Source: Escherichia phage anhysbys. Taken from it: DNA of 64,000 nucleotides. Of this stretch, positions 5,292 through 57,834 are shown piece by piece. Within the stretch, counting starts at the first letter, position 1; each line of letters opens with the position of its first letter. The position numbers were made by a program, and so were the translations under genes. The notes beneath the pieces were generated by a model, which made no database searches, had not been told where the DNA came from, and saw only the letters and a list, made by a program, of their open reading frames with translations. Where the stretch lies: the sequence record NC_052656.1; one strand, written 5' to 3'.

Positions 5292-5303
5292 GAGGAGAAC
5301 AAA

Positions 5304-5591: not shown

Positions 5592-5944
5592 AAATTGTAC
5601 ACGATGAAATTCAAATAGAAGAAAGTGACCTGATGGATTTGGATGCAGCTTTGGGGAAGGTAATCTATGCAGGAATTAAAGCCTTCCGTGAGAAGGCAAA
5701 CAATAGCACGTTTGTCATGATCCCCACTAAACTGATGCGTGTTTTGTATCCAAATAGAAGTGCGCCGTATACAGATGAAGAAGAGGAGACAGGTAGAAGA
5801 GAGTGGTTAAATATTTTAGAAAAGATGGAGAATGCTTTTATTGATAGTGGTAATCCAGAAATCGTGTATGCTGAAGATCAAAGGAAGGCACGATTAGAAG
5901 GCCGTCTTTTATTCGCTAGTTATTTTGATAATCTTTGGAGCTAA
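5588..5944 (+). CDS. hypothetical protein
   Basis: ORF track 118 aa; ATGA overlap. Confidence 0.55.
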   Translation: MKIVHDEIQIEESDLMDLDAALGKVIYAGIKAFREKANNSTFVMIPTKLMRVLYPNRSAPYTDEEEETGRREWLNILEKMENAFIDSGNPEIVYAEDQRKARLEGRLLFASYFDNLWS

Positions 5945-11389: not shown

Positions 11390-11470
11390 CAAATGATAAT
11401 GATTCGCATTTAGGTTTATAAATGAGAATGATTCTTATTTAATAAAGTAAATGATAATCATTCTCATTTA
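11390..11470 (+). promoter_or_regulatory. three tandem Fur-box-like 21-bp palindromic sites
   Basis: AAATGATAATGATTCGCATTT / AAATGAGAATGATTCTTATTT / AAATGATAATCATTCTCATTT, about 30 bp apart. Confidence 0.5.
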
Positions 11471-11727
11471 GAGAATGACGCGCAGGGGCGGTGTTTGTCT
11501 CGCGCTCCCGTGTCCCCTCGCCATGTAATAAGAATAACAGATCCAACCAGGAAAGCAAGCGATTATTTTATCTTTACATTTCTTTACGAATATATAGCGC
11601 CCAGCCTACCGGCGATCAACCTTCCAACCAGTGCCCCTGGTATGTTAGCCCCGCCTTTACGCCGTGGGGTGGCGCTTCCTCTTCTGTATGTAAAACAGTA
11701 TAAGCCCTATCCCTGGGCTTGTCAAGA

Positions 11728-12267: not shown

Positions 12268-12465
12268 ATGGCAACATTGCACATAGTAGCGAAAGCAGGA
12301 CAAATCAGCGTCGTGGTAAACGGTTTTACTGAGTTCAGTCATCCCCAGGATGATCATGAAACGGTTTTATCTTTCATTGATTCCCTGTTAGAAATGGGAG
12401 TCATTACAGAAGACCAGCACGCTACAAAGTGCAAGCGCGTTAATCAAATTGCAGGGATAGAATAA
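12268..12465 (+). CDS. hypothetical protein
   Basis: ORF track 65 aa; GGAG RBS; first gene of plus array. Confidence 0.5.
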   Translation: MATLHIVAKAGQISVVVNGFTEFSHPQDDHETVLSFIDSLLEMGVITEDQHATKCKRVNQIAGIE

Positions 12466-12471
12466 AAAGTA

Positions 12472-12530
12472 TTGACAACAAACAACAACCTGATAAGATG
12501 TATCACATAGGGCGGGAAGTGGTTTCCCGC
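12472..12530 (+). promoter_or_regulatory. promoter + 5' stem-loop cassette (PeSL-like)
   Basis: TTGACA, -10 TAAGAT, then GCGGGAA-GTGGT-TTCCCGC hairpin before gene 12556. Confidence 0.6.
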
Positions 12531-12555
12531 TCGTAACAGAAGAGAGATTATCATC

Positions 12556-12828
12556 ATGGCATCATATAGCGCAACAATGATCGTAGCTGGCACAACTGGT
12601 AAACCTATGAGCGGTGGCGGATCTTTCGCTAATATCAACATTGACGGGCGTTTATCCCTGGACGCAGCGATCACCGTGGCGCGGGAAACATTTAAGAAAG
12701 AATGTAAATTCAATAAACAAGATTATCTCGGTTTCGCTATTGAAAAAACCGCGCGTTTTGTTGATTATAAAAGCCCAAAAATGGTTGATACTACACTAAA
12801 AGCGCAAGATGTAGCGTTTTTGCTTTAA
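12556..12828 (+). CDS. hypothetical protein
   Basis: ORF track 90 aa; preceded by promoter/stem-loop cassette. Confidence 0.6.
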   Translation: MASYSATMIVAGTTGKPMSGGGSFANINIDGRLSLDAAITVARETFKKECKFNKQDYLGFAIEKTARFVDYKSPKMVDTTLKAQDVAFLL

Positions 12829-12831
12829 GGC

Positions 12832-12886
12832 TTGACATTAACGAATAATTTGTTAATATGTTACATAAAGCGGGAATAGTTCCCGC
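12832..12886 (+). promoter_or_regulatory. promoter + 5' stem-loop cassette
   Basis: TTGACA, TTAATAT, GCGGGAA-TAG-TTCCCGC. Confidence 0.6.
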
Positions 12887-12904
12887 TATTTGTAAGGTGG
12901 TAGA

Positions 12905-13162
12905 ATGTTTTACATCAAATTAAAAGGTCACGTGATCGCGTTCAAAGATAACGCTTTTTACAGATTAGCAAAATATGCGTTAATACATCCCCACTATGTT
13001 TATATAAGGGGGCGTGATGAAATAAATATCTTTGATCAAACAACATGCGAGAACATCGAGATCCGCAAGGTTGGCGTACGTGATTATCGTACATCTTTCT
13101 ACCCTTGCAAGGATTCAGCAAGTCTTTTTAAAGTATGCCAATTGTTGAAAAAAGGTGGTTAA
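12905..13162 (+). CDS. hypothetical protein
   Basis: ORF track 85 aa; cassette upstream. Confidence 0.55.
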   Translation: MFYIKLKGHVIAFKDNAFYRLAKYALIHPHYVYIRGRDEINIFDQTTCENIEIRKVGVRDYRTSFYPCKDSASLFKVCQLLKKGG

Positions 13163-13721
13163 TATGGGCCGCGAATATGTGATCCAGTCTTGGGTAAAAC
13201 ATGAAGCAGATGATCCGCGCATCGTTCCCGATCATCTTATCGATGAATCCACGGGATATAGCGGTGAGCAAATAGGTAACAGATTAGCACGTAGTAACGG
13301 CAACGTAAAAGCGCGTTATGTGCGCCCTGGTTGGCTGGCAAATGGTAACGCTGATTTATCCAGTGCGGAAGATGCGAGCGACGGCGCGAAAGATAATCCT
13401 TTGTACAAAATTGATCCGGCTTTTCGTGTCCTGGATGAATACCCCAGCAAGATAGCGGCGCTTGATGAAGCTCTGGAAAGTAAGCGCATCACCTGGACCG
13501 CTTACAACATGGCAAAAAACGTACTTGATGGTAAATTGATTCAAGCCGAAAGAAAATTAGCCAAAATTGCAGCCATAGCCCAGGAGGAAGACGAGGAGAC
13601 AACGGAAGAGGAAGAGTACGAAGAGATCCCGCCGTTGTTGTGTGTTGATGCTTTTCCTGATTATCAGCCGACAGAGGAAGAAAAAAGGATCGCACTAGAA
13701 AACTTTGAAAATAGTCTTTGA
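13155..13721 (+). CDS. hypothetical protein with acidic C-terminus
   Basis: ORF track 188 aa. Confidence 0.6.
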   Translation: MVNMGREYVIQSWVKHEADDPRIVPDHLIDESTGYSGEQIGNRLARSNGNVKARYVRPGWLANGNADLSSAEDASDGAKDNPLYKIDPAFRVLDEYPSKIAALDEALESKRITWTAYNMAKNVLDGKLIQAERKLAKIAAIAQEEDEETTEEEEYEEIPPLLCVDAFPDYQPTEEEKRIALENFENSL

Positions 13722-13775
13722 CATATCGCCGCCACTGGCATAATATTTACCACGTAGGGCGGCAATGGTGCCGCT
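13718..13775 (+). promoter_or_regulatory. promoter + 5' stem-loop cassette
   Basis: TTGACA, CATAAT, GGCGGCA-ATGG-TGCCGC. Confidence 0.6.
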
Positions 13776-13783
13776 CATAGTGA

Positions 13784-13879
13784 AATTATGCAAGAGGTTT
13801 ACAATGATTAATAAAGAAAATAGCTTGACGGTTGGAACGATTAACGCTATCATTTTCGCCGTTCCATTTTGGGTTGTAG
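13784..13879 (+). CDS. tiny hydrophobic protein (~31 aa)
   Basis: Own translation MINKENSLTVGTINAIIFAVPFWVVVAAIIF; sits between two cassettes. Confidence 0.4.
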
Positions 13880-13887
13880 TAGCGGCT

Positions 13888-13949
13888 ATTATTTTCTAAA
13901 AAATATTCTTGACAACGTTTTTTAATCTGATAAGATGTATCACATAGGG
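13888..13949 (+). promoter_or_regulatory. promoter + 5' stem-loop cassette
   Basis: TTGACA, TAAGAT, GGCGGCGGAA-TAC-TTCCCCGCC. Confidence 0.6.
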
Positions 13950-13989
13950 CGGCGGAATACTTCCCCGCCAAAACAAAAAGGGTAACACA

Positions 13990-14352
13990 ATGAGCAAGCA
14001 AATTAATACTATCATGTTTAATCTGGTATCTTTCCGCGACGATATGAAAAATTTACCACGTGAAACGGTTGATATTCATGTTTCAGCTTATCGCGCCCTT
14101 ATTGACATGTTACCGCTAAAACGTGATCAATATGCCGCTAACACGATGCTTAATGCTATGCTTAAAAAGATGATTCAAACGGATCTCACCCTAGCGTATG
14201 AGTATCAAGGGCGCTTATATGCAACTTATAACAAGGCGGTACCTGGTCTGGGAAGTACCGAAGAGTTGCACGGCTTAAACCTGGATCAAAACACTTGGGA
14301 TAGTATGCGCCGCGTTATGGTATGGGCCGAAAGCGGTAAAATTTACGAATAA
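13990..14352 (+). CDS. hypothetical protein
   Basis: ORF track 120 aa; cassette upstream. Confidence 0.6.
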   Translation: MSKQINTIMFNLVSFRDDMKNLPRETVDIHVSAYRALIDMLPLKRDQYAANTMLNAMLKKMIQTDLTLAYEYQGRLYATYNKAVPGLGSTEELHGLNLDQNTWDSMRRVMVWAESGKIYE

Positions 14353-14358
14353 AAACGG

Positions 14359-14417
14359 TTGACACTGTTTAAACTTCTGGTATAGTTTACCACATAGGGC
14401 GGGAAGTGGTTTCCCGC
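14359..14417 (+). promoter_or_regulatory. promoter + 5' stem-loop cassette
   Basis: TTGACA, TATAGT, GCGGGAA-GTGGT-TTCCCGC. Confidence 0.6.
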
Positions 14418-14440
14418 CAACAATGAAAAAGGTTATCATC

Positions 14441-14806
14441 ATGGCTATTAATATTAATGTTTCCGCTTATGCTACCCTGGCTGCCACGGCTAAAATTGAA
14501 TTGTCCAGCATTGAGGCGGTGCACATTAGCGCCCGTCGCTGGTTTCAACAGTCTTACGGTAACACATATTTTTCTTTAATGGTTGACGTTGAGATCGGCG
14601 GTAAACTGATCGAGGTGGTTAACGTTCCGTTTCAATATGGCTATGGTGATCATTTTGATACCGTCGCCCTGGAAGAATTTAGCAAGGTTATTAATATGGA
14701 AGGTAAAGAGTTTTCACGCGGCGCGTATCTTTCCCGTTTTTGCCGTGACAATGGGATCACTGTATACAGTCATGCGAGCGATGTTAAACGTAAAAAAGAT
14801 TTATAA
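14441..14806 (+). CDS. hypothetical protein
   Basis: Track frame 14423-14806; start refined to MAININ (pattern ..ATCATCATGGC shared with other array genes). Confidence 0.6.
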   Translation: MAININVSAYATLAATAKIELSSIEAVHISARRWFQQSYGNTYFSLMVDVEIGGKLIEVVNVPFQYGYGDHFDTVALEEFSKVINMEGKEFSRGAYLSRFCRDNGITVYSHASDVKRKKDL

Positions 14807-14813
14807 AAAGCAT

Positions 14814-14872
14814 TGACAGCACGAATAAAAAGAGTAAACTGTATTACATAGAGAGCGGGAACACTTCCCGCC
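14814..14872 (+). promoter_or_regulatory. promoter + 5' stem-loop cassette
   Basis: TTGACA, TAAACT, GCGGGAA-CAC-TTCCCGC. Confidence 0.6.
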
Positions 14873-14895
14873 TCACTGAAAAAGAGAGAAAAATC

Positions 14896-15135
14896 ATGGC
14901 TAAATCTAAAATGTACAACGGTCACAAAAACAAAACTCATTGGAATGTAAACCTTTGGATTAATAACGATGAATCGTTATACCGGTTGGCCCAAGATTTT
15001 ATTAACGCTAATGCTAATCGTAATGATGCGGCGCGGGATATGATGCTTTTTCTGGAACAAACTGGACAAGATAAAACGCCAGACGGTTTCAAATATAGCA
15101 CTACTGCGATCCGTGCCGCGATGGTTGGAATGTAA
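14896..15135 (+). CDS. hypothetical protein
   Basis: ORF track 79 aa; cassette upstream. Confidence 0.6.
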   Translation: MAKSKMYNGHKNKTHWNVNLWINNDESLYRLAQDFINANANRNDAARDMMLFLEQTGQDKTPDGFKYSTTAIRAAMVGM

Positions 15136-15144
15136 TAAAAACAG

Positions 15145-15203
15145 TTGACAACGTTTAAAATTAGTGTAAGATGTATCACATAGGGCGGGAAGTGGTTTCC
15201 CGC
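15145..15203 (+). promoter_or_regulatory. promoter + 5' stem-loop cassette
   Basis: TTGACA, TAAGAT, GCGGGAA-GTGGT-TTCCCGC (same as 12472 copy). Confidence 0.6.
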
Positions 15204-15225
15204 CAAAACAGAGAGATTAAAGATT

Positions 15226-15453
15226 ATGGCTATCAATATTGTTCGCGTATCTGGCACCGTTGGCACTTCCCAGGTCATTGCCGTTGTAACAAACAAAAAG
15301 ATTAATGATGTATGTGAGATCTTGAATAAGTGGGCTGTTGCTAATTTTGGGGAATATGCAAGCGTTGAGTACATCGAATCCTACCAGGTGCCAACCATCA
15401 GCCTAACCGATCTCAACGTTGATCGCCTGTTATGCCTGGACGAATTAATCTGA
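15226..15453 (+). CDS. hypothetical protein
   Basis: ORF track 75 aa; cassette upstream. Confidence 0.6.
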   Translation: MAINIVRVSGTVGTSQVIAVVTNKKINDVCEILNKWAVANFGEYASVEYIESYQVPTISLTDLNVDRLLCLDELI

Positions 15454-15462
15454 AAAAGATTG

Positions 15463-15519
15463 TTGACACCGGAAAGAAAAAGAGTAAACTGTATTACGTA
15501 GGGCGGCAATGGTGCCGCT
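15463..15519 (+). promoter_or_regulatory. promoter + 5' stem-loop cassette
   Basis: TTGACA, TAAACT, GGCGGCA-ATGG-TGCCGC. Confidence 0.6.
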
Positions 15520-15543
15520 CACAACAGAAGAGAGATTATTACG

Positions 15544-15759
15544 ATGGCCAATATCCGCACACTGTTAAAAAATGCAAGTCAAGTTTTATTTTCAGATGAC
15601 GAGTATTTCAATAAAGACATTACAGGCGTAAAAAATCTTAAAGATGTAAAGGATGTGATAGGTATTCGCGGATCTTTACGTAAAGGTGACTACTACGGCA
15701 ATAAAGTACAATATAAATTAAATCAGTCTTATGATTTTACTTTGACAATTATTTCATAA
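15544..15759 (+). CDS. hypothetical protein
   Basis: ORF track 71 aa; cassette upstream. Confidence 0.55.
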   Translation: MANIRTLLKNASQVLFSDDEYFNKDITGVKNLKDVKDVIGIRGSLRKGDYYGNKVQYKLNQSYDFTLTIIS

Positions 15760-15764
15760 AACCG

Positions 15765-15827
15765 CTTGCAATCTTAATAAAATAAAGTAAACTGTATTAC
15801 ATCAAGGCGGCGGAATGGTCCACCGCC
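15765..15827 (+). promoter_or_regulatory. promoter + 5' stem-loop cassette
   Basis: CTTGCA, TAAACT, GGCGGCGGA-ATGG-TCCACCGCC. Confidence 0.55.
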
Positions 15828-15851
15828 TAACAAAGAGAAGAGGAAAACACC

Positions 15852-16019
15852 ATGATCACTTTCGCTACCCGTGAAGCCGCTCGCAACGTTGCCCGTAAAG
15901 TTAACGCCGCCAACCTGGGCGCTACGTTTAAAGCACCTGTAAAAGATGAATCAGGAAAATGGATCTTCCCTGGTCTGCGTCACGCTGATAAGCTAGGCAC
16001 TTTAAGCCTTAAAAAATAA
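15852..16019 (+). CDS. small hypothetical protein (~55 aa)
   Basis: Own translation MITFATREAARNVARKVNAANLG...; cassette upstream; shares 5' leader and first codons with 16094 gene. Confidence 0.45.
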   Translation: MITFATREAARNVARKVNAANLGATFKAPVKDESGKWIFPGLRHADKLGTLSLKK

Positions 16020-16022
16020 TCG

Positions 16023-16059
16023 TTGACTTTTCGTTATAGCGCCTTATAATGGGCGCTAT
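16023..16059 (+). promoter_or_regulatory. near-consensus sigma70 promoter with -10 inside a palindrome
   Basis: TTGACT-16-TATAAT; inverted repeat ATAGCGCC-TTATAATG-GGCGCTAT encloses -10. Confidence 0.6.
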
Positions 16060-16093
16060 AGAGAAGAGAAACCACTACTGACAAGGAAACACC

Positions 16094-16315
16094 ATGATCA
16101 CTTTCGCTATTGTCGCCGTTGTTGCTGGTCAAGTTTACGTAAACGATACATTCACCACAGAAGACAAGGCCGCAGGAGATATAACCGCCGTTTACAACGA
16201 GTGCAAGGCAGTAGAAAGGATGTTAGCGCCTTGTATGTTAATGAGTGAACGCCAGGACGGGATAACAGTGTTTACTAACATTGAGACAGGGTACCAAATG
16301 GTAGTAACAAAATAA
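16094..16315 (+). CDS. hypothetical protein
   Basis: ORF track 73 aa; TTGACT-16-TATAAT promoter upstream. Confidence 0.55.
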   Translation: MITFAIVAVVAGQVYVNDTFTTEDKAAGDITAVYNECKAVERMLAPCMLMSERQDGITVFTNIETGYQMVVTK

Positions 16316-16318
16316 AGC

Positions 16319-16375
16319 TTGACACGGATTTAATTTTCAGTAAACTGTTACACGTAGGGCGGGAATAGTTCCCGC
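16319..16375 (+). promoter_or_regulatory. promoter + 5' stem-loop cassette
   Basis: TTGACA, TAAACT, GCGGGAA-TAG-TTCCCGC. Confidence 0.6.
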
Positions 16376-16393
16376 TAAAAAGAGAGAAAAACC

Positions 16394-16747
16394 ATGAAAG
16401 CACAAAATGCAATTAAAGAGTACATCCTTGCCGCTATCGATTTTAATGATTACGGTATTACAACCGAAAAAGAGAAGATCGCGGAATTGATGCGCCGTTT
16501 TAATTCCGAGTACTGGTACCCTGATAACCAATCACGTTTTAATTATAGTATTGTTAAAGCACTTGCATCATGGTTACAAGGTTTGCCATCAGATATTAAT
16601 ATCGCTTTCGAATATTGGGAAATTGATCGCTTGTTAACATCCTGGGGATACATTAAAGAGAATAGCAGCGATGATAAAATCCAACGAGAAAGGGAAAATT
16701 ATTGGCTTTATATTGCAGGCGTGATCCTTGCTTGCTCTTATGAATGA
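16394..16747 (+). CDS. hypothetical protein
   Basis: ORF track 117 aa; cassette upstream. Confidence 0.6.
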   Translation: MKAQNAIKEYILAAIDFNDYGITTEKEKIAELMRRFNSEYWYPDNQSRFNYSIVKALASWLQGLPSDINIAFEYWEIDRLLTSWGYIKENSSDDKIQRERENYWLYIAGVILACSYE

Positions 16748-16753
16748 TAAACC

Positions 16754-16807
16754 TTGACAATTTTACAAAACAGTTTAAATTAATAATATAGCGGCAATGG
16801 TGCCGCT
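16754..16807 (+). promoter_or_regulatory. promoter + 5' stem-loop cassette
   Basis: TTGACA, TAATAA/AATATA, GCGGCA-ATGG-TGCCGC. Confidence 0.55.
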
Positions 16808-16826
16808 CATATAAAGAGGAAACAAA

Positions 16827-16973
16827 ATGAATACATCTAATCGCGCAGAAAAAATCCAATCTTCCAAGATCCGCAAGGCCTGGAACGAGGAAGTGATCCG
16901 CAAAGGCGACAAGCGCAATAAAACAAAGCGCGGGAAGAGTGACAAATATAATTGGATGGATTTAGAGGATTAA
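16827..16973 (+). CDS. small basic protein (~48 aa)
   Basis: Own translation MNTSNRAEKIQSSKIRKAWNEEVIRKGDKRNKTKRGK...; cassette upstream, terminator downstream. Confidence 0.45.
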   Translation: MNTSNRAEKIQSSKIRKAWNEEVIRKGDKRNKTKRGKSDKYNWMDLED

Positions 16974-16979
16974 CATAAC

Positions 16980-17007
16980 AAGGGCGCACCAAGCGCCCTT
17001 TCTTTTT
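16980..17007 (+). terminator. rho-independent terminator
   Basis: AAGGGCGC-ACCA-AGCGCCCTT + TCTTTTT. Confidence 0.7.
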
Positions 17008-17028
17008 ACATGTAGAGGATAAACAAAG

Positions 17029-17214
17029 ATGACTTTAAGCGAGCTTAAAACAGCCTACAACGCAACGTTAAAAATAGCCGTGCGTTACCGTGATGCGTAC
17101 GGTTTTATCGCGCAGGGCGTGATCCTGGGCTTTTCTGACGATGGTTTGATCTATGTTGATGCACATTATAACAAGGTAAAACCTGAAAACGTCATTAGCA
17201 TAAAATATCTTTAA
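17029..17214 (+). CDS. hypothetical protein
   Basis: ORF track 61 aa. Confidence 0.5.
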   Translation: MTLSELKTAYNATLKIAVRYRDAYGFIAQGVILGFSDDGLIYVDAHYNKVKPENVISIKYL

Positions 17215-17220
17215 AAGTGG

Positions 17221-17280
17221 TTGACACCATAACCGGACCTGTTAAACTGTATTACATCAGGCGGGGAATAGTTCCCCACC
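17221..17280 (+). promoter_or_regulatory. promoter + 5' stem-loop cassette
   Basis: TTGACA, TAAACT, GCGGGGAA-TAG-TTCCCCAC. Confidence 0.6.
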
Positions 17281-17299
17281 ATACAAAAAGGTAAATATT

Positions 17300-17506
17300 A
17301 TGATCACCGCAAAACAAGAGAAAATCATTATCGACGTTGCAGCCGTTGCCGCTATTGCTATTATTGGATCTTATTATGATACCCGTTTCCCGTCGGCTAT
17401 GCATGAGATCGCCGCCGTTGCATCAGTTGGCGTACTGTTTTACGTTGGTAAACGCTATTTATCACCAATGATTAACAAGCTGACACCGTGGAAAAATAAA
17501 GGTTGA
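17300..17506 (+). CDS. small membrane protein
   Basis: ORF track 68 aa; hydrophobic IIIDVAAVAAIAIIGSYY / AAVASVGVLFYVG. Confidence 0.55.
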   Translation: MITAKQEKIIIDVAAVAAIAIIGSYYDTRFPSAMHEIAAVASVGVLFYVGKRYLSPMINKLTPWKNKG

Positions 17507-17557
17507 TCCTGTTTTATATTGTGTTATAGTTATCGTGTAGGGCGGCAATGGTGCCGC
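17503..17557 (+). promoter_or_regulatory. promoter + 5' stem-loop cassette
   Basis: TTGATC, TATAGT, GGCGGCA-ATGG-TGCCGC. Confidence 0.55.
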
Positions 17558-17577
17558 GCCCCTTTGAGGATGCAATC

Positions 17578-17862
17578 ATGAGTAAAGCTAACACCGTGCT
17601 AATGTTTTCCCTGATTAATGATCCCGCTTACTTGTCCAACATGACGCAGGAGGGTAACACATTAACGGCAACATTCACCAATAAGCTTGACCGGGTGATC
17701 ATCATCTCACTGAAAACAGTTAGTAAAGGCTTTTACTCGTTAGCTTATCATTGGATCACCGATACCGATGAGACAAGCCAGGACTATAGCGCCCCTTTCC
17801 CTGAATCAATGGCACGGGAGATCATCGCCGCCGTTGTAAATGATGGTTTGTTTACTGCATAA
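17578..17862 (+). CDS. hypothetical protein
   Basis: Track frame; start refined to MSKANTVLMF downstream of cassette. Confidence 0.6.
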   Translation: MSKANTVLMFSLINDPAYLSNMTQEGNTLTATFTNKLDRVIIISLKTVSKGFYSLAYHWITDTDETSQDYSAPFPESMAREIIAAVVNDGLFTA

Positions 17863-17880
17863 AATAATTTAGAAAAAGGC

Positions 17881-17937
17881 TTGCAATCATTTTGAGATAG
17901 TGTATATTTAATTCATAGGGCGGCGGGAATAGTTCCC
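17881..17937 (+). promoter_or_regulatory. promoter + 5' stem-loop cassette
   Basis: TTGCAA, TATATT, GGGAA-TAG-TTCCC. Confidence 0.55.
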
Positions 17938-17960
17938 AAAGCAAACGAGAGGATTACACG

Positions 17961-18080
17961 ATGAGCAAGTACACAGTAGAATACACGGTAGAAAATCCGG
18001 CAGTATCCGAAGGTAAAAAGATGACATTTGCCATCAGTATAATCGCTTTCGTTGTCACTATCTTATCAATCATCTTATAA
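17961..18080 (+). CDS. tiny membrane protein (~39 aa)
   Basis: Own translation MSKYTVEYTVENPAVSEGKKMTFAISIIAFVVTILSIIL; cassette upstream. Confidence 0.4.
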   Translation: MSKYTVEYTVENPAVSEGKKMTFAISIIAFVVTILSIIL

Positions 18081-18090
18081 GGTGCACACC

Positions 18091-18252
18091 ATGAAAACAA
18101 CAGATATTATCAAAGAGATCGCCCATGCCGCTGGCGTTGAGATCGAGGAAGTGATCGCGCTCAATCTTACAGAAAACGATCTGCGCAACTATGAAGCGGA
18201 AAGCGTGAAAGCAAGCGGCGCGGTCCTGGTATATGATCCGGCTAACAAGTAA
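18091..18252 (+). CDS. hypothetical protein
   Basis: Track frame 18052-18252; start refined to MKTTDIIKE after AAGGTG. Confidence 0.5.
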   Translation: MKTTDIIKEIAHAAGVEIEEVIALNLTENDLRNYEAESVKASGAVLVYDPANK

Positions 18253-18261
18253 GGGGATAAC

Positions 18262-18372
18262 ATGAATCCGAAAGATATGCAAGCATGGAAAGGGTACGAC
18301 GATCTAAGCGCCTTGCGCAATAAGTCAAGCCGTAACCTTAGACGGTTGGAAGCAAAGAAAAAGAAAAAATAG
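18262..18372 (+). CDS. tiny basic protein (~36 aa)
   Basis: Own translation MNPKDMQAWKGYDDLSALRNKSSRNLRRLEAKKKKK; AAGGGGA RBS. Confidence 0.35.
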   Translation: MNPKDMQAWKGYDDLSALRNKSSRNLRRLEAKKKKK

Positions 18373-18373
18373 T

Positions 18374-18430
18374 TTGACAAGTCCGCCTAGTCTGATAATA
18401 TGTATCTTGTAGGGCGGCAATGGTGCCGCT
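18374..18430 (+). promoter_or_regulatory. promoter + 5' stem-loop cassette
   Basis: TTGACA, TAATAT, GGCGGCA-ATGG-TGCCGC. Confidence 0.6.
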
Positions 18431-18450
18431 CACAAGAAGAGAGAAAAATC

Positions 18451-18735
18451 ATGAAAATCACAAAAAGCCTAACTAATTATGCAGCACGTCGCGGATTATG
18501 TTTAACCGTTGAAAACTTAGGGAAAGAAGACTTTTTGTGTTTTTGGGAGCTTGAAAATGATTGCGAGTGGATGTTTTCTTATTCTATCTGCGAAGATCAA
18601 AACGGTTGTTTGTTAACCTGGCGCGGTAATATCTATTTACCGGAAGAAATTAAAGAAGAGTTACCAGGTACGATCATGACAGAGAGACAGCTTAAGGAAA
18701 TGATTAATTTTGTAGGGCAAAACATTAAAAAATAA
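18451..18735 (+). CDS. hypothetical protein
   Basis: Track frame; start refined to MKITKSL downstream of cassette. Confidence 0.6.
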   Translation: MKITKSLTNYAARRGLCLTVENLGKEDFLCFWELENDCEWMFSYSICEDQNGCLLTWRGNIYLPEEIKEELPGTIMTERQLKEMINFVGQNIKK

Positions 18736-18736
18736 T

Positions 18737-18797
18737 TTGACAGCACGCAAACAACGTAGTAAAGTTTACCACATAGGGCGGCGGAATGGTCCACCGC
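18737..18797 (+). promoter_or_regulatory. promoter + 5' stem-loop cassette
   Basis: TTGACA, TAAAGT, GGCGGCGGA-ATGG-TCCACCGC. Confidence 0.55.
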
Positions 18798-18820
18798 TCA
18801 CAACAGAAGAGAAACAAATC

Positions 18821-18991
18821 ATGATCCCGACTATGTTTTATGTATCGCGCAAAGGTCACAATATTTTTTGGTCTGAAGATTTAAATGAAGCTATGACGTT
18901 TGCCCGTGATCGTGTTGCTATCGGTGGCGTTAACATCACCGTAACCGATGAAAATGGCATTGAATACTATAACGGCGACGATGAAGAATAA
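18821..18991 (+). CDS. hypothetical protein
   Basis: Track frame; start refined to MIPTMFYVSRKG downstream of cassette. Confidence 0.5.
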   Translation: MIPTMFYVSRKGHNIFWSEDLNEAMTFARDRVAIGGVNITVTDENGIEYYNGDDEE

Positions 18992-19038
18992 TTAATGAGG
19001 CGGGGGAGTATTCCCCGCCGTCAATAAAGAGGTAAATC

Positions 19039-19308
19039 ATGAAAATATCATTGGACGTTGCAATCAAGGCCATCGAATCCGGTTACATCCTGGTAAAAGA
19101 TGATAAGGCTAAAATAGTGCATCATGTTAACAAGGAAACAGGCGAAAGCATGATCACATATAAAGCCGCCTACTTTCTCCAATCAGTAGCAGATCCGCGC
19201 GTACAACGCCAGGTTATGGCGGCTATTGCTAAAAAATTATGTGCTTTACAGGGTACAAGTTTTAACGAGATCGCCCCGTGTTTTGAGTGGTCAAGCTTGA
19301 AAAAATAA
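19039..19308 (+). CDS. hypothetical protein
   Basis: ORF track 89 aa; GC hairpin upstream. Confidence 0.55.
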   Translation: MKISLDVAIKAIESGYILVKDDKAKIVHHVNKETGESMITYKAAYFLQSVADPRVQRQVMAAIAKKLCALQGTSFNEIAPCFEWSSLKK

Positions 19309-19309
19309 T

Positions 19310-19370
19310 TTGACAACAATTATAAATCGGGTAGAATGTATTTCGTAGGGCGGGGCAATAAAGCAACGCC
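19310..19370 (+). promoter_or_regulatory. promoter + degenerate 5' stem-loop cassette
   Basis: TTGACA-16-TAGAAT; GGGCG...CGCCC weaker stem. Confidence 0.5.
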
Positions 19371-19389
19371 CATTAATGAGGGTAGAATC

Positions 19390-19494
19390 ATGTTAGAGAA
19401 AATTTTCACGGTTGTAATAGTGGGCCTGGCGTTATCGGTTGGAGTGGTTGCAACTATGGCTAACATGATCCTATCTTCCCACGGTATCGGTTAA
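19390..19494 (+). CDS. tiny membrane protein (~34 aa)
   Basis: Own translation MLEKIFTVVIVGLALSVGVVATMANMILSSHGIG; cassette upstream. Confidence 0.35.
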   Translation: MLEKIFTVVIVGLALSVGVVATMANMILSSHGIG

Positions 19495-19504
19495 GGTGAA
19501 ACAA

Positions 19505-19720
19505 ATGATCACGAACAAAACAGGCAAAACGGAATTTTTACGCGGCTTACAAGTTGGTAAGCCTGAGATCTGGCATTGCACGAAGTCCGCGCATAATGAA
19601 ATGAAAGATTTTACCGCTACTTTACAACGTGTTAAAATATCTATCACACAGAAAAAAGCCTTGTTAGTAGTAGAAAACGAGATCCCGCAAACTATTATTA
19701 TTGTCGAGCGTACAGCATGA
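19505..19720 (+). CDS. hypothetical protein
   Basis: Track frame 19496-19720 (GTG) ; ATG at 19505 preferred. Confidence 0.5.
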   Translation: MITNKTGKTEFLRGLQVGKPEIWHCTKSAHNEMKDFTATLQRVKISITQKKALLVVENEIPQTIIIVERTA

Positions 19721-20103
19721 AAACAGAAATCATTATTGAAATCATCAACGGCTATAAAGAAGCCTTTATTTTTGCTGAATCAGCAAGGGATCATGAAGGT
19801 AATTTTATTGATAACTTAGACGATTATGATTTTTCTCCTAGCGCGGATCAACGGATCGCACAGGATGTAACAGCCTTTATTAATGCTAATCTTGCCGCTA
19901 TCTCTGAGGCAATGAGCGACGGCGCAACAGCCAACCAGATCGGGAATGATTTACATTTTACCCGTAACGGTCACGGCGTAGGCTTTTGGGATCGCCCTGA
20001 AATATACACCACTAACACGGCGAACCGCCTAACCAATGCAGCTAAGTTTATGCCGAACGTGTCGGCTTACGTTGGTGAAGATAATTTTATTTATATTGAA
20101 TAA
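19717..20103 (+). CDS. hypothetical protein
   Basis: ORF track 128 aa; ATGA overlap. Confidence 0.6.
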   Translation: MKTEIIIEIINGYKEAFIFAESARDHEGNFIDNLDDYDFSPSADQRIAQDVTAFINANLAAISEAMSDGATANQIGNDLHFTRNGHGVGFWDRPEIYTTNTANRLTNAAKFMPNVSAYVGEDNFIYIE

Positions 20104-20109
20104 AAAGTA

Positions 20110-20166
20110 TTGACACAGATCGCCAGTGTGCTAATATTTACCACGTAGGGCGGCAATGGTGCCGCT
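20110..20166 (+). promoter_or_regulatory. promoter + 5' stem-loop cassette
   Basis: TTGACA-16-TAATAT, GGCGGCA-ATGG-TGCCGC. Confidence 0.6.
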
Positions 20167-20187
20167 CCCCGAAAAAGGTAAAACATT

Positions 20188-20379
20188 ATGAAAACTATCA
20201 GCTACCTGGAATCGAATAACATGTTTTTTGCGCCCGTTGATGAAATCATCGAAGCATTAAACAACGAGGAAGGGATCAATGGTTTATCTTATAGCCAGCT
20301 TTTAGGAATGGTTGCAGCAAATGAGGAGCTTGCTTACTATGTTGAAAATTTTGATGAAGCTGTAATCTTTACAAAATAA
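20188..20379 (+). CDS. hypothetical acidic protein
   Basis: ORF track 63 aa; cassette upstream. Confidence 0.55.
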   Translation: MKTISYLESNNMFFAPVDEIIEALNNEEGINGLSYSQLLGMVAANEELAYYVENFDEAVIFTK

Positions 20380-20382
20380 TCC

Positions 20383-20439
20383 TTGATCTAATCTCTCAGA
20401 TAACTTATATTTAATGCGTAGGGCGGCAATGGTGCCGCC
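20383..20439 (+). promoter_or_regulatory. promoter + 5' stem-loop cassette
   Basis: TTGATC, TATATT, GGCGGCA-ATGG-TGCCGCC. Confidence 0.55.
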
Positions 20440-20457
20440 GATAATGAGGAAAACAAA

Positions 20458-20757
20458 ATGGAAACTATCGCTATTGTTACCGTAGAAAAACTGGTTGTTG
20501 GTGATGTATTCGCGTTAATGGTGCCTAACAGCAGCAAGCTGGGCGCTTATGAAGTAATGGATCATAAAAATGAATCATTTGGCGACGGTTGCACAATGGC
20601 GGTAAAATCTTTAAAGGATGGAATCATCCGCCAGGCTAACTGGCACAAAGGGAATCAAGTCGGTTTAATATCAGCTAATTTCTTGCCAGAAGAGCAAACA
20701 TTAGATCAACTATCAGGCGGTAAGACGTTAGCCGAACTACTGGAAACAGCGATCTAA
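20458..20757 (+). CDS. hypothetical protein
   Basis: ORF track 99 aa; cassette upstream. Confidence 0.6.
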   Translation: METIAIVTVEKLVVGDVFALMVPNSSKLGAYEVMDHKNESFGDGCTMAVKSLKDGIIRQANWHKGNQVGLISANFLPEEQTLDQLSGGKTLAELLETAI

Positions 20758-20810
20758 TCGACAAGGGGCGGCAACGCCCCCATTAAACGCAATAGGAAGA
20801 GGATAGACAC

Positions 20811-21095
20811 ATGAAAAAGATGATCGCAGTAGTTGCCCTGGTTGTTGGTATTAACGCGCCTGTAATGGCGAAAGAGTTGCCAGAATCCATCACGTTAACC
20901 GATATTAACGCAGTGAATCGGATCGGTGTTAATTATCGCCTATGCCTTGCCGCTAAAACTTTCCAGGACGGCACAACAGAGTACTACGGATTCGAGGGTA
21001 TCCGCTGCGGTGAGCTTTCACGCGACCTTAAGGAAGATCCAGACCTTGAGGCCATACCGATGACCGTAAACGGTAAAGCCCACGTAAACCGCTAA
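20811..21095 (+). CDS. putative secreted protein
   Basis: ORF track 94 aa; signal-peptide-like MKKMIAVVALVVGINAPVMA. Confidence 0.6.
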   Translation: MKKMIAVVALVVGINAPVMAKELPESITLTDINAVNRIGVNYRLCLAAKTFQDGTTEYYGFEGIRCGELSRDLKEDPDLEAIPMTVNGKAHVNR

Positions 21096-21097
21096 CC

Positions 21098-21232
21098 ATG
21101 AGAAAGGTAATCATCACAATGGGGATCGTAGTAGCAACGCTGGCGCTTATCCCTTTCATGGTTGAATATGTGCTGATTAATGTTGTCCTGGTAGTCAGTG
21201 ACCTATTGGAAACGGTTGGCACCTGGTTTTAA
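21098..21232 (+). CDS. tiny membrane protein (~44 aa)
   Basis: Own translation MRKVIITMGIVVATLALIPFMVEYVLINVVLVVSDLLETVGTWF. Confidence 0.4.
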   Translation: MRKVIITMGIVVATLALIPFMVEYVLINVVLVVSDLLETVGTWF

Positions 21233-21405
21233 GATAATAAATAGGGCTTGCAATAGTCCTATTTTTTGTTATACTTATTGAACGGGCGGCACCTGGGAGC
21301 AGGGGAAGATAATCACCGGAAGACCCCGCTATATATTGATAACTAACGCCTATCAAACAACAAAACATCAAAGGAACAAACTATCAAATCTTTACAATTC
21401 TACCT

Positions 21406-21467
21406 ATTGACACCGGATCACGCTTACATTATTATTTATCACGTAGGGCGAGCAATACAGCAAGCCC
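21406..21467 (+). promoter_or_regulatory. promoter + degenerate 5' stem-loop cassette
   Basis: TTGACA, ATTATT, GGGCGAGCAA...GCAAGCCC imperfect stem. Confidence 0.45.
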
Positions 21468-21484
21468 ACAAAGAGGAAAAGAAG

Positions 21485-21853
21485 ATGAGCAAATCAGCAA
21501 TTAAAGCAGTTGAAAAAGCGCAAGAAGTGATCGCAACGTCTACCACTGGCGCAAAGGTTAATCTGATCGGTTATCTGACAGATGAAACTATCCGTAAAAA
21601 TTGGCGTAATGCTGATTTACTGGCTTGCTTATTGATTAATAGTGTCGCTAATGCTTTCCAGTGTGAAACAGCCGAGAGCCTGGAGGAAAACTTGTTTGAT
21701 AATATGGATCAAGCCATTGAAACCTATATACAATCAAACCTGGATAGCTGGAACAGTAAAACATGGCCAGACAGTTTACGCGATACAACTGATCAACTGA
21801 TCCGCCTTGCCGTGATGGTTGAACGCGATAACGTTTACAACAGCACAAAGTAA
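21485..21853 (+). CDS. hypothetical protein
   Basis: Track frame; start refined to MSKSAIKAVEKAQ after AAGAGGAAAAG; terminator downstream. Confidence 0.6.
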   Translation: MSKSAIKAVEKAQEVIATSTTGAKVNLIGYLTDETIRKNWRNADLLACLLINSVANAFQCETAESLEENLFDNMDQAIETYIQSNLDSWNSKTWPDSLRDTTDQLIRLAVMVERDNVYNSTK

Positions 21854-21861
21854 GATTATAC

Positions 21862-21890
21862 AAGGGGCGCACCAAGCGCCCTTTCTTTTT
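21862..21890 (+). terminator. rho-independent terminator (same sequence as 16980 copy)
   Basis: AAGGGGCGC-ACCA-AGCGCCCTT + TCTTTTT at end of plus array. Confidence 0.7.
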
Positions 21891-22097
21891 GCCCGAACAA
21901 TGTTGATAGCTTTCGCCTATGAAAAACCGACACAGAACAAAATTGAATAAATCGCGGTATCGAGCTAATCAACCATTAAACGAATAACCATACCTCCCAG
22001 GGTAACAGGCTGTTAGAGAGCCATTTATAGCGGTTAAAATCGATCAACAACCAACAACAAACCATCAAAAACACCCTTTTACCTCCTTTCTAGTGCA

Positions 22098-22539
22098 ATG
22101 ATAACCATTATCATCTACCCATGATTATCTATGCAATATAAGCGCATAATTATAATGTTGATAATAGTTCGCAACAACTAACCAACAAACAACATAAAAC
22201 AAGAAGCAAACTAATCATAATCAAAGGAATAATAGCAAGATGATTGATAACGACAAACAATCAAACCATGATGAATACTAAGCAAGATAACGATAACACG
22301 ACAAAACAACCAACTAACGAACAATAACAAACGAAACCATTAAAATAATAACTATTGCCATAATAGTGACTGAATGAAATCATTACAAAACGAATCATTC
22401 CCAGGATCATCATTAGCACGCTATGCCGGACACATAGCGAGCTAATAATAAGCCAACTACACCCCAACAATCATAACCATCGGTGATGGTTATTTCTTGT
22501 TACTGCGTAGCTTGCAATAATTGCAAGCGTAATTACGCT
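22098..22539. repeat. cluster of perfect palindromes in ORF-free region
   Basis: ATGATAACCATTATCAT (22098), ATAACCATCGGTGATGGTTAT (22474), GCTTGCAATAATTGCAAGC (22510), AGCGTAATTACGCT (22526). Confidence 0.5.
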
Positions 22540-22732
22540 TACACTTATTGCGCTGGCTTATTATTAGCATTATATGTAATTACCAAGATCATAACATTAA
22601 CGCAATAACAATAATCATTGTAATGGTTACAATATGAAATCATTGGCAAGATGAATAATTGCACGTAGCAACATGAGCGAATAGCGACAGGTTGCATAGT
22701 GTGCACATAATAGAATAAAAGTCAATAATTTT

Positions 22733-22855
22733 GGGGGCGAAATGTTACCGCCACAGGCGGGAATGTTGAGCACTAAGAAAAGAGATAAACCTTAATCATG
22801 GGGGCGTAAATATCCGCAGGATTGCCAACGGCGATCCGGTAGGATGTTGAGCATC
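22733..22855 (+). repeat. two tandem related units beginning TGGGGGCG and ending GATGTTGAGCA
   Basis: Unit 1 ~22733-22775, unit 2 ~22799-22855; internal GC stems. Confidence 0.4.
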
Positions 22856-22923
22856 TTCTCTTAAACGTAAATAAAATCAGAAAATTCTTGATTTATTTTA
22901 GTTTTTATGTTAATAAACGTTTA

Positions 22924-22950
22924 AATAATAATCATTCTCATATGAATAAT
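22924..22950 (+). promoter_or_regulatory. Fur-box-like site
   Basis: AATAATAATCATTCTCATATGAATAAT. Confidence 0.4.
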
Positions 22951-23101
22951 AGTCTGCTTGTCATGAGCGGGATTAGTTGACATTGTTCCGTCATATGATG
23001 AGGTTGCCAACCTATTGATAAATAAGTGTTTGTGTGATTTATAATCAAGTGGCCCACCTTGTCGCTATGTTGGCATGAGCCTTGCATAAGTCATTGAATA
23101 C

Positions 23102-23130
23102 GAATGATAATTATTCTCATTCGCATGATA
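23102..23130 (+). promoter_or_regulatory. Fur-box-like site
   Basis: GAATGATAATTATTCTCATTCGCATGATA. Confidence 0.4.
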
Positions 23131-23462
23131 TTTGGGAATTGTCGCTGCGTGGACCTGACGGCCCGAAAATTCGCGTTAAGCACTTCTTACGTATGCGCCA
23201 TGATTTTTGCCATATGATATTGATTCTATTAGATATTCTTGCCATGATTGCCATGAAACAGGGTGTCCCGAAATAATCTCTCCCCGTAGATATTTTGGGT
23301 TACTTTTTATACAAGAGTGGGGTGTCAAAAATAATCGATATATATGGGATAATTGATAGGAATCCCCTATGGTAATTCGATTGTAATTGCCGAAGATTGA
23401 TCGTATGATGTTGGTGATTGATGATTGCCATGAAAGATGGCTAACGATGAGAGGAGATTGTC

Positions 23463-57827: not shown

Positions 57828-57834
57828 AGTTTCA

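Follow-up and report, generated by a model that had tools for sequence, protein, structure and literature searches.

In phage T7, the early-region terminator TE closes the block of early genes that is transcribed by the host polymerase. T4-like phages carry PeSL cassettes, composites of a sigma-70 promoter and a stem-loop, and it has been proposed that the stem-loops attenuate early transcription where it piles up (Arbiol et al. 2010, PMC2839356; Comeau et al. 2014, PMC4122927). The window analysed here, a 64,000-nucleotide stretch of Escherichia phage anhysbys (NC_052656.1), belongs to Phapecoctavirus, the phAPEC8-like E. coli myoviruses with genomes of about 150 kb in the Stephanstirmvirinae. 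From about 12.4 to 21.9 kb, nearly every small open reading frame (ORF) has a strong sigma-70-type promoter of its own, and the two cleanest plus-strand terminator-like sites between 12 and 22 kb, T1 and T2, are nearly identical; the only other compact hairpin followed by a T run is the weaker Tm.

16980–17007, plus strand: T1, terminator-like hairpin AAGGGCGC-ACCAA-GCGCCCTT, then TCTTTTT
21862–21890, plus strand: T2, hairpin AAGGGGCGC-ACCAA-GCGCCCTTT (one G more than T1), then CTTTTT
17008–21861, plus strand: T1–T2 interval, small early genes, mostly with their own promoter cassette
21239–21270, plus strand: Tm, weaker AT-rich terminator-like hairpin from terminator scans (compact hairpin and T run, 21239–21264)

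Both sites resemble E. coli intrinsic terminators, with a GC-rich hairpin of 8–9 base pairs (six of them G–C) around a 5-nt loop, a U tract and a location just past a stop codon, and T2, like TE, is predicted to close a block of early genes read by the host polymerase. Unlike canonical intrinsic terminators and TE, the T1/T2 sequence recurs two to three times in each genome and is conserved throughout the phage subfamily, and T1 directly precedes a promoterless gene, so it would have to leak. As with PeSL cassettes, the repeated stem-loops are concentrated in the variable right-end region, their neighbours, apart from the T7 gene 1.1-like ORF before T1, fall in PHROGs of unknown function, and indel or replacement junctions between close relatives lie inside repeats of the T1/T2 family. 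Unlike PeSL cassettes, the repeat consists only of a hairpin and a T run, with a full U tract and no promoter. Terminators are also separate here from the promoter cassettes (TTGACA-N16/17-TAnnnT with a 5′ hairpin), which form a repeat family of their own, and the phage lineage is not T4-like. We consider it likely that the right-end early array is punctuated by rho-independent terminators of one small, conserved family, whose copies are kept alike by descent, selection and conversion and recur as indel junctions.

The initial annotation had described one terminator sequence used twice on the plus strand, and its coordinates and sequence are correct. The 24-mer GCGCACCAAGCGCCCTTTCTTTTT occurs in exactly two plus-strand copies (16984–17007 and 21867–21890) and has no match in 100 dinucleotide-preserving shuffles with three mismatches allowed. 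The full units, AAGGGCGCACCAAGCGCCCTTTCTTTTT (16980–17007) and AAGGGGCGCACCAAGCGCCCTTTCTTTTT (21862–21890), are 28 and 29 bases long and differ by one extra G. Their similarity ends on the right with the T run and on the left within about 5 nt (ATAAC versus ATAC); the flanks beyond are unrelated. Each unit folds into a single hairpin, T1 at −14.7 kcal/mol (z −5.0) and T2 at −15.3 kcal/mol (z −3.1), with none of 200 shuffles as stable in either case. The stems are followed by UUUCUUUUU, and the U-rich tract TTTCTTTTT (8 of 9 T) lies immediately 3′ of both.

On the coding strand, T1 begins 6 nt after the ORF at 16827–16973 and T2 8 nt after the ORF at 21485–21853. A stable GC stem-loop, an adjoining U tract and a post-gene position, the sequence hallmarks of an intrinsic terminator, are thus present at both sites. 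Third-party predictions by ARNold or TransTermHP mark terminators with identical or almost identical sequence at orthologous positions in three GenBank records, phAPEC8 (JX561091), Schickermooser (NC_048196) and ASO2A (MZ726793): the T1 counterpart in phAPEC8 (record positions 1–17) and Schickermooser, and the T2 counterpart in phAPEC8 (5494–5512), Schickermooser and ASO2A. As far as sequence can show, T1 and T2 are ordinary predicted rho-independent terminators, sites that the records of related phages already mark as such, and the term terminator was well chosen. A search for a host origin found no match to T2 in 5,426 complete E. coli genomes, and our literature search found no transcriptome or transcript-mapping study of any Stephanstirmvirinae phage.

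T1 and T2 belong to a GGGCGC-N5-GCGCCC family with two to three copies per genome across the Stephanstirmvirinae. Among the 19 genomes examined, the hairpin occupies the T2 position in all 19, including Justusliebigvirus and Klebsiella phages of the subfamily, and the T1 position in 17; ESCO5 has lost the T1 stretch, and the FBKp34 locus gave no T1-position hairpin. In 11 of the 19 there is a third copy upstream of T2. The ORF before T1 is orthologous in the two genera compared. The phAPEC8, Schickermooser and ASO2A records list their terminators one by one; the copy relationship among them, and the third copy, which has no U tract, are not noted in the records or literature that we found.

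The stem is invariant across these genomes at up to three positions, with no compensatory change, and the loop varies (ACCAA, ATCAA, ACTAA, AATAA, ACAAA, AAATA, TTAAT and TTATT). Such a frozen stem with an A-rich pentaloop might mark a sequence-specific RNA site, bound by an antiterminator, a processing nuclease or an RNA-stabilising protein, and the position of T1 ahead of a gene without its own promoter would then make it a regulated switch. The ACAAA-loop variants resemble the P22 boxB hairpin, a likeness that is a lead and not a test. However, selection on stability alone is expected to freeze a 6-bp GC stem, the loops, usually the recognised part, differ freely among copies and are in some cases even inverted (TTATT, TTAAT), and no Rfam family reaches gathering score in any part of the window, so we regard such a site as very improbable.

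Scarcely more probable is that T1 and T2 are unrelated terminators that reached the same efficient design by convergence, with neither copying nor exchange. Their unrelated flanks would fit this, as would the window's reuse of two other terminator hairpins, and a scan of IMG/VR found GGGCGC-AYYAA-GCGCCC in 95 stretches, as single matches in unrelated contigs, 43 of them with a T run after the hairpin and other flanks in the contig. That scan yielded no multi-copy Phapecoctavirus contig, and its matches show only that the hairpin design recurs elsewhere. Against convergence, the 24–29 nt in common extend to a loop of arbitrary sequence and to the interrupted tail TTTCTTTTT, with no occurrence expected by chance, and two genera have the identical stem at three positions.

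The pattern of differences between lineages fits overwriting instead. T1 of the window is identical to T2 at 28–29 of 32 positions in its own genome and three other lineages, and at 26–29 of 32 across all T2s compared, whereas its counterparts at the same position in VEcB and phiWec181 match it at only 24–25 of 32. Sister lineages have another loop and tail in T1, whereas their T2 is stable. That T1 is closer to T2 than to the T1 of other lineages suggests gene conversion; although the comparison turns on about six to eight variable positions in a 32-nt element, T1 was probably overwritten by T2-type sequence in the core Phapecoctavirus lineage. The near identity of T1 and T2 would then reflect common descent within the family, purifying selection on the GC stem and, probably, this conversion.

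The genes around T1 bear on what the terminator may do there.

16754–16781, plus strand: last sigma-70-like promoter cassette before T1, TTGACA-16-TAAATT (promoter scan; repeat families D1–D5)
16827–16973, plus strand: 48-aa ORF before T1, T7 gene 1.1 protein family
17029–17214, plus strand: 61-aa ORF after T1, homologue of phAPEC8_001 (PHROG 25271, E = 1e-39; phAPEC8 annotation)

The 48-aa product, likewise of unknown function, matches Pfam PF08200 (E = 4.9e-13) and PHROG 2490 and is 60% identical in amino acids to VEcB gp122, which likewise lies upstream of a T1-type hairpin. The 61-aa ORF starts 21 nt past T1 and has a ribosome-binding site, and the promoter scan found no promoter-like site at 16790–17220, the next being at 17221. 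Because this ORF has a ribosome-binding site and lacks its own promoter, we infer that its expression relies on read-through of T1, which probably functions within the promoter-dense early array as a leaky terminator (attenuator) and would set the level of that gene.

At the other end of the interval, T2 lies close to the physical end of the genome.

21407–21435, plus strand: promoter of the last gene before T2, TTGACA-17-TATTAT (11 of 12 matches)
21485–21853, plus strand: 122-aa ORF before T2, phAPEC8_0016 homologue (PHROG 15368)
21891–22849, no strand: ORF-poor spacer from T2 to the terminal-repeat equivalent, no ORF of at least 70 aa
22850–23178, no strand: equivalent of the 329-bp direct terminal repeat of Schickermooser (physical genome ends)

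The PHROG 15368 match covers residues 27–148 of a longer, TTG-started ORF; in most relatives, gene 0017 sits between the 0016 homologue and T2. The spacer, conserved at about 70% identity into Justusliebigvirus, places T2 about 960 nt ahead of the terminal-repeat equivalent, and the promoter scan found no promoter-like site between T2 and about 23248. The Schickermooser record begins at window position 22850 and finishes at 23178, its first 329 nt being identical to its last 329 nt (the repeat was reported as 328 bp; PMC6563267). These positions are consistent with T2 as the terminator that closes the early array ahead of the terminal repeat. The phAPEC8 record starts inside T1, and we considered that start as a physical end; since the Schickermooser repeat maps to 22850–23178, it was the annotators' choice.

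Taken together, the layout suggests a simple transcription scheme. The early array at the right genome end would be transcribed by host RNA polymerase and punctuated by T1 and T2. Because nearly every small ORF has its own strong promoter, transcripts from successive promoters would accumulate downstream; T1 would halt most of the transcription from the roughly 12 promoters upstream of it, and T2 would end the array and keep early transcription off the genome terminus. In concatemers, T2 may also shield the left-end genes from early transcription. As a by-product, indels that arise by homology or slippage could have their junctions in the 23–29 nt repeats, as could exchanges of whole cassettes.

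Indels among relatives fit such a by-product. PHROG and Pfam searches place the genes of the T1–T2 interval only in families of unknown function, and synteny maps show that their content differs widely among relatives, with a T1–T2 spacing from 816 bp in SF1-1 to 6.9 kb in phiWec181. An exact 565-bp indel between two hairpin copies, T2a and T2, sets the window apart from most relatives: the window joins the left flank of T2a to the right flank of T2 and lacks gene 0017, which B15 and Mt1B1_P17, its closest relatives over this stretch (99% identity), both retain. In B15 the hairpins at T2a and T2 both have the identical ACCAA form. Other phages without 0017 have hybrid junctions, with loop ACTAA and tail TTTATTTTT in nepoznato and vB_Ec-G1 and with loop ACTAA and TTTCTTTTT in ASO2A. 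Three unrelated genes (0016, 0017 and a gp108-like gene) adjoin T2 in different phages with the same hairpin after each, the right flank of T2 being constant within each lineage, and a fourth unrelated gene, VEcB gp110, adjoins the middle hairpin copy. We also compared the genes that precede the hairpin copies of Justusliebigvirus with phAPEC8_0016 and 0017 as possible orthologues and found no similarity. In SF1-1, a 561-bp deletion has its left end in the 3′ arm of T1. Hairpin copies thus mark places where small genes have been lost or swapped, although the state without 0017 could be ancestral, with one insertion that later spread, instead of a recurrent deletion; in TH18, from another subfamily, gene 0016 is directly followed by the full terminator.

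Could the hairpins be mainly elements of recombination or mobility, serving cassette swap, loss or mini-circle excision, with termination secondary? The exact 565-bp indel with at least two junction types, the unrelated genes upstream of T2 and a gene-plus-terminator module in a Vequintavirinae phage would agree with this, as would the PeSL concept in T4-like phages (PMC2839356, PMC4122927) and further indels in the region that join promoter cassettes (nieznany 18429/20418 and ESCO5 15539/19300). Yet neither T1 nor T2 contains a promoter, both have the form of complete canonical terminators, and their positions are conserved across genera, as a function in transcription predicts. Moreover, because genes must stay intact, indel ends are expected to be intergenic, and some coincidence of breakpoints with terminators is to be expected even if the hairpins play no mechanistic part. 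We therefore think a primary role in mobility improbable, if less so than convergence. A bolder extension of the terminator-family reading, in which the hairpins are the Stephanstirmvirinae counterpart of PeSL cassettes, maintained by conversion and actively driving cassette turnover, including the gene-plus-terminator transfer to a Vequintavirinae phage, is possible, but we hold it only tentatively.

The initial annotation had further suggested that regulatory modules are copied as units and that the two copies could delete or invert the intervening 4.9 kb. Copying finds some support in the conserved family of two to three copies and in the homogenisation of T1 towards T2; however, only the terminator of about 30 nt is shared and T1 holds an old orthologous position in two genera, so that it did not arise by recent duplication of a larger module. 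Deletion is plausible, and the 565-bp indel is an event of the same kind on a smaller scale, but a chimeric junction query found no exact T1×T2 product in 69 related records; in the sole single-place match, SF1-1, the sites are still about 0.8 kb apart. Inversion is wrong, since T1 and T2 are direct repeats, between which recombination yields deletion or duplication. The WPEC1 record does show the T2 region on the strand opposite T1, but the breakpoint lies about 400 nt from T1 and the record is a patchwork in which 155-nt blocks from distant genome regions are duplicated, so we treat it as an assembly problem. Differing flanks and a lack of deletion variants, which the annotation had named as signs of independent origin, are literally what is observed, the search for deletions covering 69 records; independent origin is not thereby established.

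By itself, a twice-used terminator carries little weight and is ordinary biology resembling the PeSL cassettes. It does offer a testable transcription map for the phAPEC8-like early region, with many promoters, one internal attenuator and an end terminator before the terminal repeat. Repeated terminator hairpins, like promoter cassettes, mark the sites of loss or replacement of accessory early genes, which would extend the regulatory-cassette shuffling of T4-like phages to another phage group. As phAPEC8-like phages are used in therapy and biocontrol, this is relevant to predicting or engineering deletions there.

Two further terminator hairpins are also used repeatedly in the window. A repeat of sequence TAAATGATAATCATTCTCATTTA was considered as a Fur box and rejected, as only one site lies within three mismatches of the consensus and the same was seen in 7 of 100 shuffles. 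The weaker hairpin Tm overlaps promoter-like hexamers, with a TTGCAA −35-like hexamer inside its loop and TATACT downstream, and phAPEC8 (4308–4327) and Schickermooser have terminators annotated at the orthologous sites.

The 24-mer GCGCACCAAGCGCCCTTTCTTTTT occurs exactly twice in the window, both times on the + strand (16984-17007 and 21867-21890), and has no match in 100 dinucleotide-preserving shuffles with up to three mismatches allowed. The duplicate terminator sequence that the initial annotation had described is therefore real, exact and far beyond chance. We denote the full units T1 and T2:

16980-17007, + strand: T1, AAGGGCGCACCAAGCGCCCTTTCTTTTT
21862-21890, + strand: T2, AAGGGGCGCACCAAGCGCCCTTTCTTTTT

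Each unit forms a single hairpin of 8-9 bp with six G-C pairs and the loop ACCAA, with folding energies of -14.7 (T1) and -15.3 kcal/mol (T2) that none of 200 shuffles equals, and UUUCUUUUU lies directly 3′ of both hairpins. On the right the likeness extends as far as the final T, on the left it breaks off within about 5 nt, and beyond these limits the flanks are unrelated. A consensus scan and a census agree that T1 and T2 are the cleanest + strand terminator-like sites between 12 and 22 kb; a weaker, AT-rich hairpin at 21239-21264 is the sole further compact candidate in that range. By every sequence-level criterion they are predicted intrinsic terminators, of an ordinary kind that is already annotated in the records of relatives: the phAPEC8 record carries putative terminators at the orthologous sites (positions 1-17 and 5494-5512, ARNold), the Schickermooser record has two ARNold putative terminators at its orthologous sites, and the T2 site of ASO2A is annotated as a putative terminator (TransTermHP, WebGeSTer). 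A host origin was rejected, since a search of 5,426 E. coli genomes gave no match to the hairpin sequence, and T1/T2 matched no Rfam family.

The region is 95-97% identical to genomes of Phapecoctavirus, a genus of phAPEC8-like myoviruses that infect E. coli, have genomes of some 150 kb and belong to the subfamily Stephanstirmvirinae. Our comparison covered 19 genomes, namely the window, 10 Phapecoctavirus or Phapecoctavirus-like phages (two of these records carry no lineage), 6 Justusliebigvirus and 2 Klebsiella phages of the same subfamily; 4 further records were compared at the T2 junction only. The hairpin GGGCGC-N5-GCGCCC is present at the T2 position in 19/19 genomes and at the T1 position in 17/19, the copy of phi1_175008 being assigned to the T1 site only tentatively; ESCO5 has lost the T1 stretch, and no copy was found at the FBKp34 locus. 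Fold, position and conservation of T1 and T2 are direct observations. The T1 position is old, because the ORF preceding it is orthologous across both genera (60% amino-acid identity). A third copy lies upstream of T2 in 11 of the 19 genomes; that of Phapecoctavirus (T2a) sits between the genes numbered 0016 and 0017 in phAPEC8 and lacks a U tract, and that of Justusliebigvirus has one. The 6-bp stem is invariant across the family and the loop is variable:

Loops of the hairpin family by position and phage
T1, Phapecoctavirus: ACCAA or ATCAA
T1, phiWec181: AAATA
T1, Justusliebigvirus (6/6): AATAA
T2, most Phapecoctavirus: ACCAA
T2, most Justusliebigvirus and both Klebsiella phages: ACAAA
T2, PD114 (locus L104, 11237-11253): AATAA
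T2, alia (locus L111, 14138-14154): TTATT, the reverse complement of AATAA
T2, WPEC1 (locus L105, 1283-1299) and TH18 (locus L117, 726-742): TTAAT
Third copy, every genome having one: ACTAA, except B15 (ACCAA)

An invariant stem could mark a protein-recognition site, but we consider this most improbable, as the loop is free to vary, to the point of appearing in inverted form, and no candidate binding partner was identified. The reverse-complemented T2 loops of some relatives (TTATT versus AATAA), with the palindromic stem unchanged, suggest that the hairpin loop was inverted locally.

The pattern of identities bears on how two such similar units arose. T1 of the window matches its own T2 at 28/32 positions and the T2 of VEcB and PD114 at 29/32 (26-29/32 over all T2s compared), whereas its positional counterparts, the T1 copies of phiWec181 and VEcB, match it at only 25/32 and 24/32, respectively, and have differing loops and tails. 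The most economical interpretation is that a T2-type sequence overwrote T1 in the core Phapecoctavirus lineage, although the variable sites are few. Pure convergence, in which T1 and T2 are unrelated in origin, fits the unrelated flanks and the recurrence of the same hairpin in unrelated viral contigs (a T run follows in 43 of 95 IMG/VR matches); it leaves unexplained both the shared arbitrary loop with its interrupted tail and the identity pattern (28-29/32 versus 24-25/32), and appears very unlikely. The present identity of T1 and T2 would instead reflect descent within one family, together with selection on the stem and gene conversion from time to time.

The hairpins also coincide with rearrangement junctions. 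In phAPEC8, B15 and most relatives, the order is 0016, T2a (..gattatacAAGGGCGCAC[T/C]AAGCGCCCTTTaacg..), a promoter, 0017 and T2; in the window, the left flank of T2a and the right flank of T2 are fused through one hairpin, an exact difference of 565 bp. The extra 565 bp is present in all but a few of the 51 records spanning the junction, including B15 and Mt1B1_P17, whose identity to the window here is 99%. In B15, ACCAA is the loop of both hairpins, which agree over 23-24 nt without a break. Other junctions without 0017 have the loop ACTAA, with the tail TTTATTTTT in nepoznato and vB_Ec-G1 and TTTCTTTTT in ASO2A, and these differing hybrids suggest at least two events or crossover points; alternatively, the 0017-less genomes may go back to one old polymorphism that spread afterwards. 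The gene adjoining T2 is 0017, 0016 or gp108-like depending on the phage, these three being mutually unrelated, and gp110 of VEcB, the gene before the middle copy in Justusliebigvirus, is unrelated to all of them; the right flank of T2 is constant within each lineage. TH18, a phage with the label Vequintavirinae, has a 0016-like gene together with the hairpin and some 80 nt of the flank beyond it (87% identity). At T1, a 561-bp deletion in SF1-1 has its left end in the 3′ arm of the hairpin and removes the U tract; the junction with the hairpin of a promoter cassette at 17553 runs through the microhomology GCGCCC(C)TTT. Cassette-to-cassette indels in nieznany (18429/20418) and ESCO5 (15539/19300) have both ends inside promoter cassettes.

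The proposal of the initial annotation that recombination between copies could delete or invert the 4.9 kb between T1 and T2 is sound in kind, with the 565-bp difference as an example, but has no instance over the full distance: a chimeric query of T1 left flank and T2 right flank matched 69 related records, and the T1-T2 junction was present in none of them. Both halves of the query fall in one place only in SF1-1, about 0.8 kb apart. Inversion is not an expected product, because T1 and T2 are direct repeats. The interval itself is very plastic across relatives, with T1-T2 spacings of 816 bp (SF1-1), 1.24 kb (DIJ07P1), 2.35 kb (nieznany), 4.88 kb (window), 5.49 kb (phAPEC8), 6.66 kb (Schickermooser) and 6.88 kb (phiWec181). 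ESCO5 lacks window positions 15539-19300, T1 included, and SF1-1 lacks 16998-17559 and 17968-21865. Since each part of the interval is thus absent from one or other of these loci, a T1-T2 deletion would probably be viable. All genes within the interval belong to PHROG or Pfam families of unknown function.

These features recall the PeSLs, promoter-early stem-loop cassettes of T4-like phages (PMC2839356, PMC4122927): in each case regulatory stem-loops recur among small unknown genes in a variable region, and indels and gene replacements have their junctions at them. A PeSL is nevertheless defined by a promoter within the repeated unit, which T1 and T2 do not have, so they fall outside that class; the promoters of this phage make up repeat families distinct from those of its terminators. 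By analogy, T1 and T2 can be taken to work like the stem-loop part of the composite PeSL. A mainly recombinational, PeSL-like role for the hairpins would agree with what is seen at the junctions. Against it stand the missing promoter and the conserved positions of T1 and T2, which have the appearance of complete terminators, and we regard such a role as unlikely. The presence at indel junctions would rather be a by-product of direct repeats of 23-29 nt. A PeSL-like, terminator-based shuffling system in Stephanstirmvirinae is conceivable, if somewhat doubtful. The weak AT-rich terminator-like hairpin at 21239-21275 (AAATAGGGCTTGCAATAGTCCTATTT, then TTTGTTATACT) has a -35-like TTGCAA within its loop and a -10-like TATACT downstream, a composite layout resembling that of PeSLs. 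Two further terminator hairpin families, with a cUUCGg tetraloop, are reused in the window, so terminator reuse is habitual in this genome:

40787-40804 (+) and 45526-45543 (-): AACCCGCTTCGGCGGGTT, two exact copies on opposite strands
41425-41442, 53519-53536 and 57811-57828 (all -): AAGGGGCTTCGGCCCCTT, three copies

Between about 12.4 and 21.4 kb, near-consensus sigma-70 promoters (TTGACA, 16-17 nt, TAnnnT) precede almost every small ORF, and these early-array promoters come with a conserved 5′ hairpin (repeat families D1-D5). About 20 repeated cassettes lie in 12460-21440 (for example 12461-12533, 14348-14420, 15134-15206, 18389-18447 and 20125-20183), each running from the promoter through the 5′ hairpin (GGGCGGCAATGGTGCCGC or GGGCGGGAAGTGGTTTCCCGCC) to a purine-rich RBS. 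The ORFs next to T1 and T2 are:

16827-16973, + strand: 48-aa ORF, stop codon 6 nt before T1
17029-17214, + strand: conserved 61-aa ORF (PHROG 25271), starting 21 nt after T1, GAGGA RBS
21485-21853, + strand: 122-aa ORF, own promoter at 21407, stop codon 8 nt before T2

The 48-aa ORF encodes a protein of the T7 gene 1.1 family (PF08200 in Pfam, E 4.9e-13), small, basic proteins common to this phage and an unrelated phage group. A promoter scan found no promoter-like site between T1 and the 61-aa ORF, the next being at 17221; expression of this ORF would therefore need read-through of T1, which would make T1 an attenuator, not a full stop.

Termination at T1 and T2, and its efficiency, are predicted from sequence; a literature search found no published transcript mapping for Stephanstirmvirinae. 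We propose that host RNA polymerase would start at the many early promoters, with transcription building up downstream; T1 would halt most of it, a fraction passing to the promoterless gene at 17029; and a second promoter set would drive genes as far as the weak terminator at 21239 and T2. T2 would then insulate the genome terminus and, in concatemers, also the left-end genes starting at 23463.

The first base of the phAPEC8 record falls within T1; we rejected this start as a physical genome end, the start point being the annotators' choice. The two ends of the Schickermooser record correspond to window 22850 (start) and 23178 (end), its first 329 nt being identical to its last 329 nt, in agreement with the 328-bp terminal repeat reported by its authors (PMC6563267). 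If the ends are as in Schickermooser, the + strand array at 12.4-21.9 kb would be the right-end early region, with 960 nt of ORF-poor DNA alone between T2 and the terminal-repeat equivalent. The whole ORF-poor stretch (21891-23460, 1.6 kb) holds that equivalent (22850-23178), and its T2-adjoining part retains about 70% identity into Justusliebigvirus, reaching further than the neighbouring genes.

In the WPEC1 record (PV659873.1), duplicated 155-nt blocks matching distant genome parts (4861-5636 and 16747-16907) and an inverted right-end segment look like an assembly artefact rather than biology. A further repeat family, TAAATGATAATCATTCTCATTTA, occurs at 11390-11476 (three tandem 29-nt units), 22922-22950 and 23101-23129, the last two copies lying within the terminal-repeat equivalent. 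Its slight likeness to a Fur box lacks significance (a single site with 3 mismatches, equalled in 7 of 100 shuffles); the repeat may be linked to replication or packaging.
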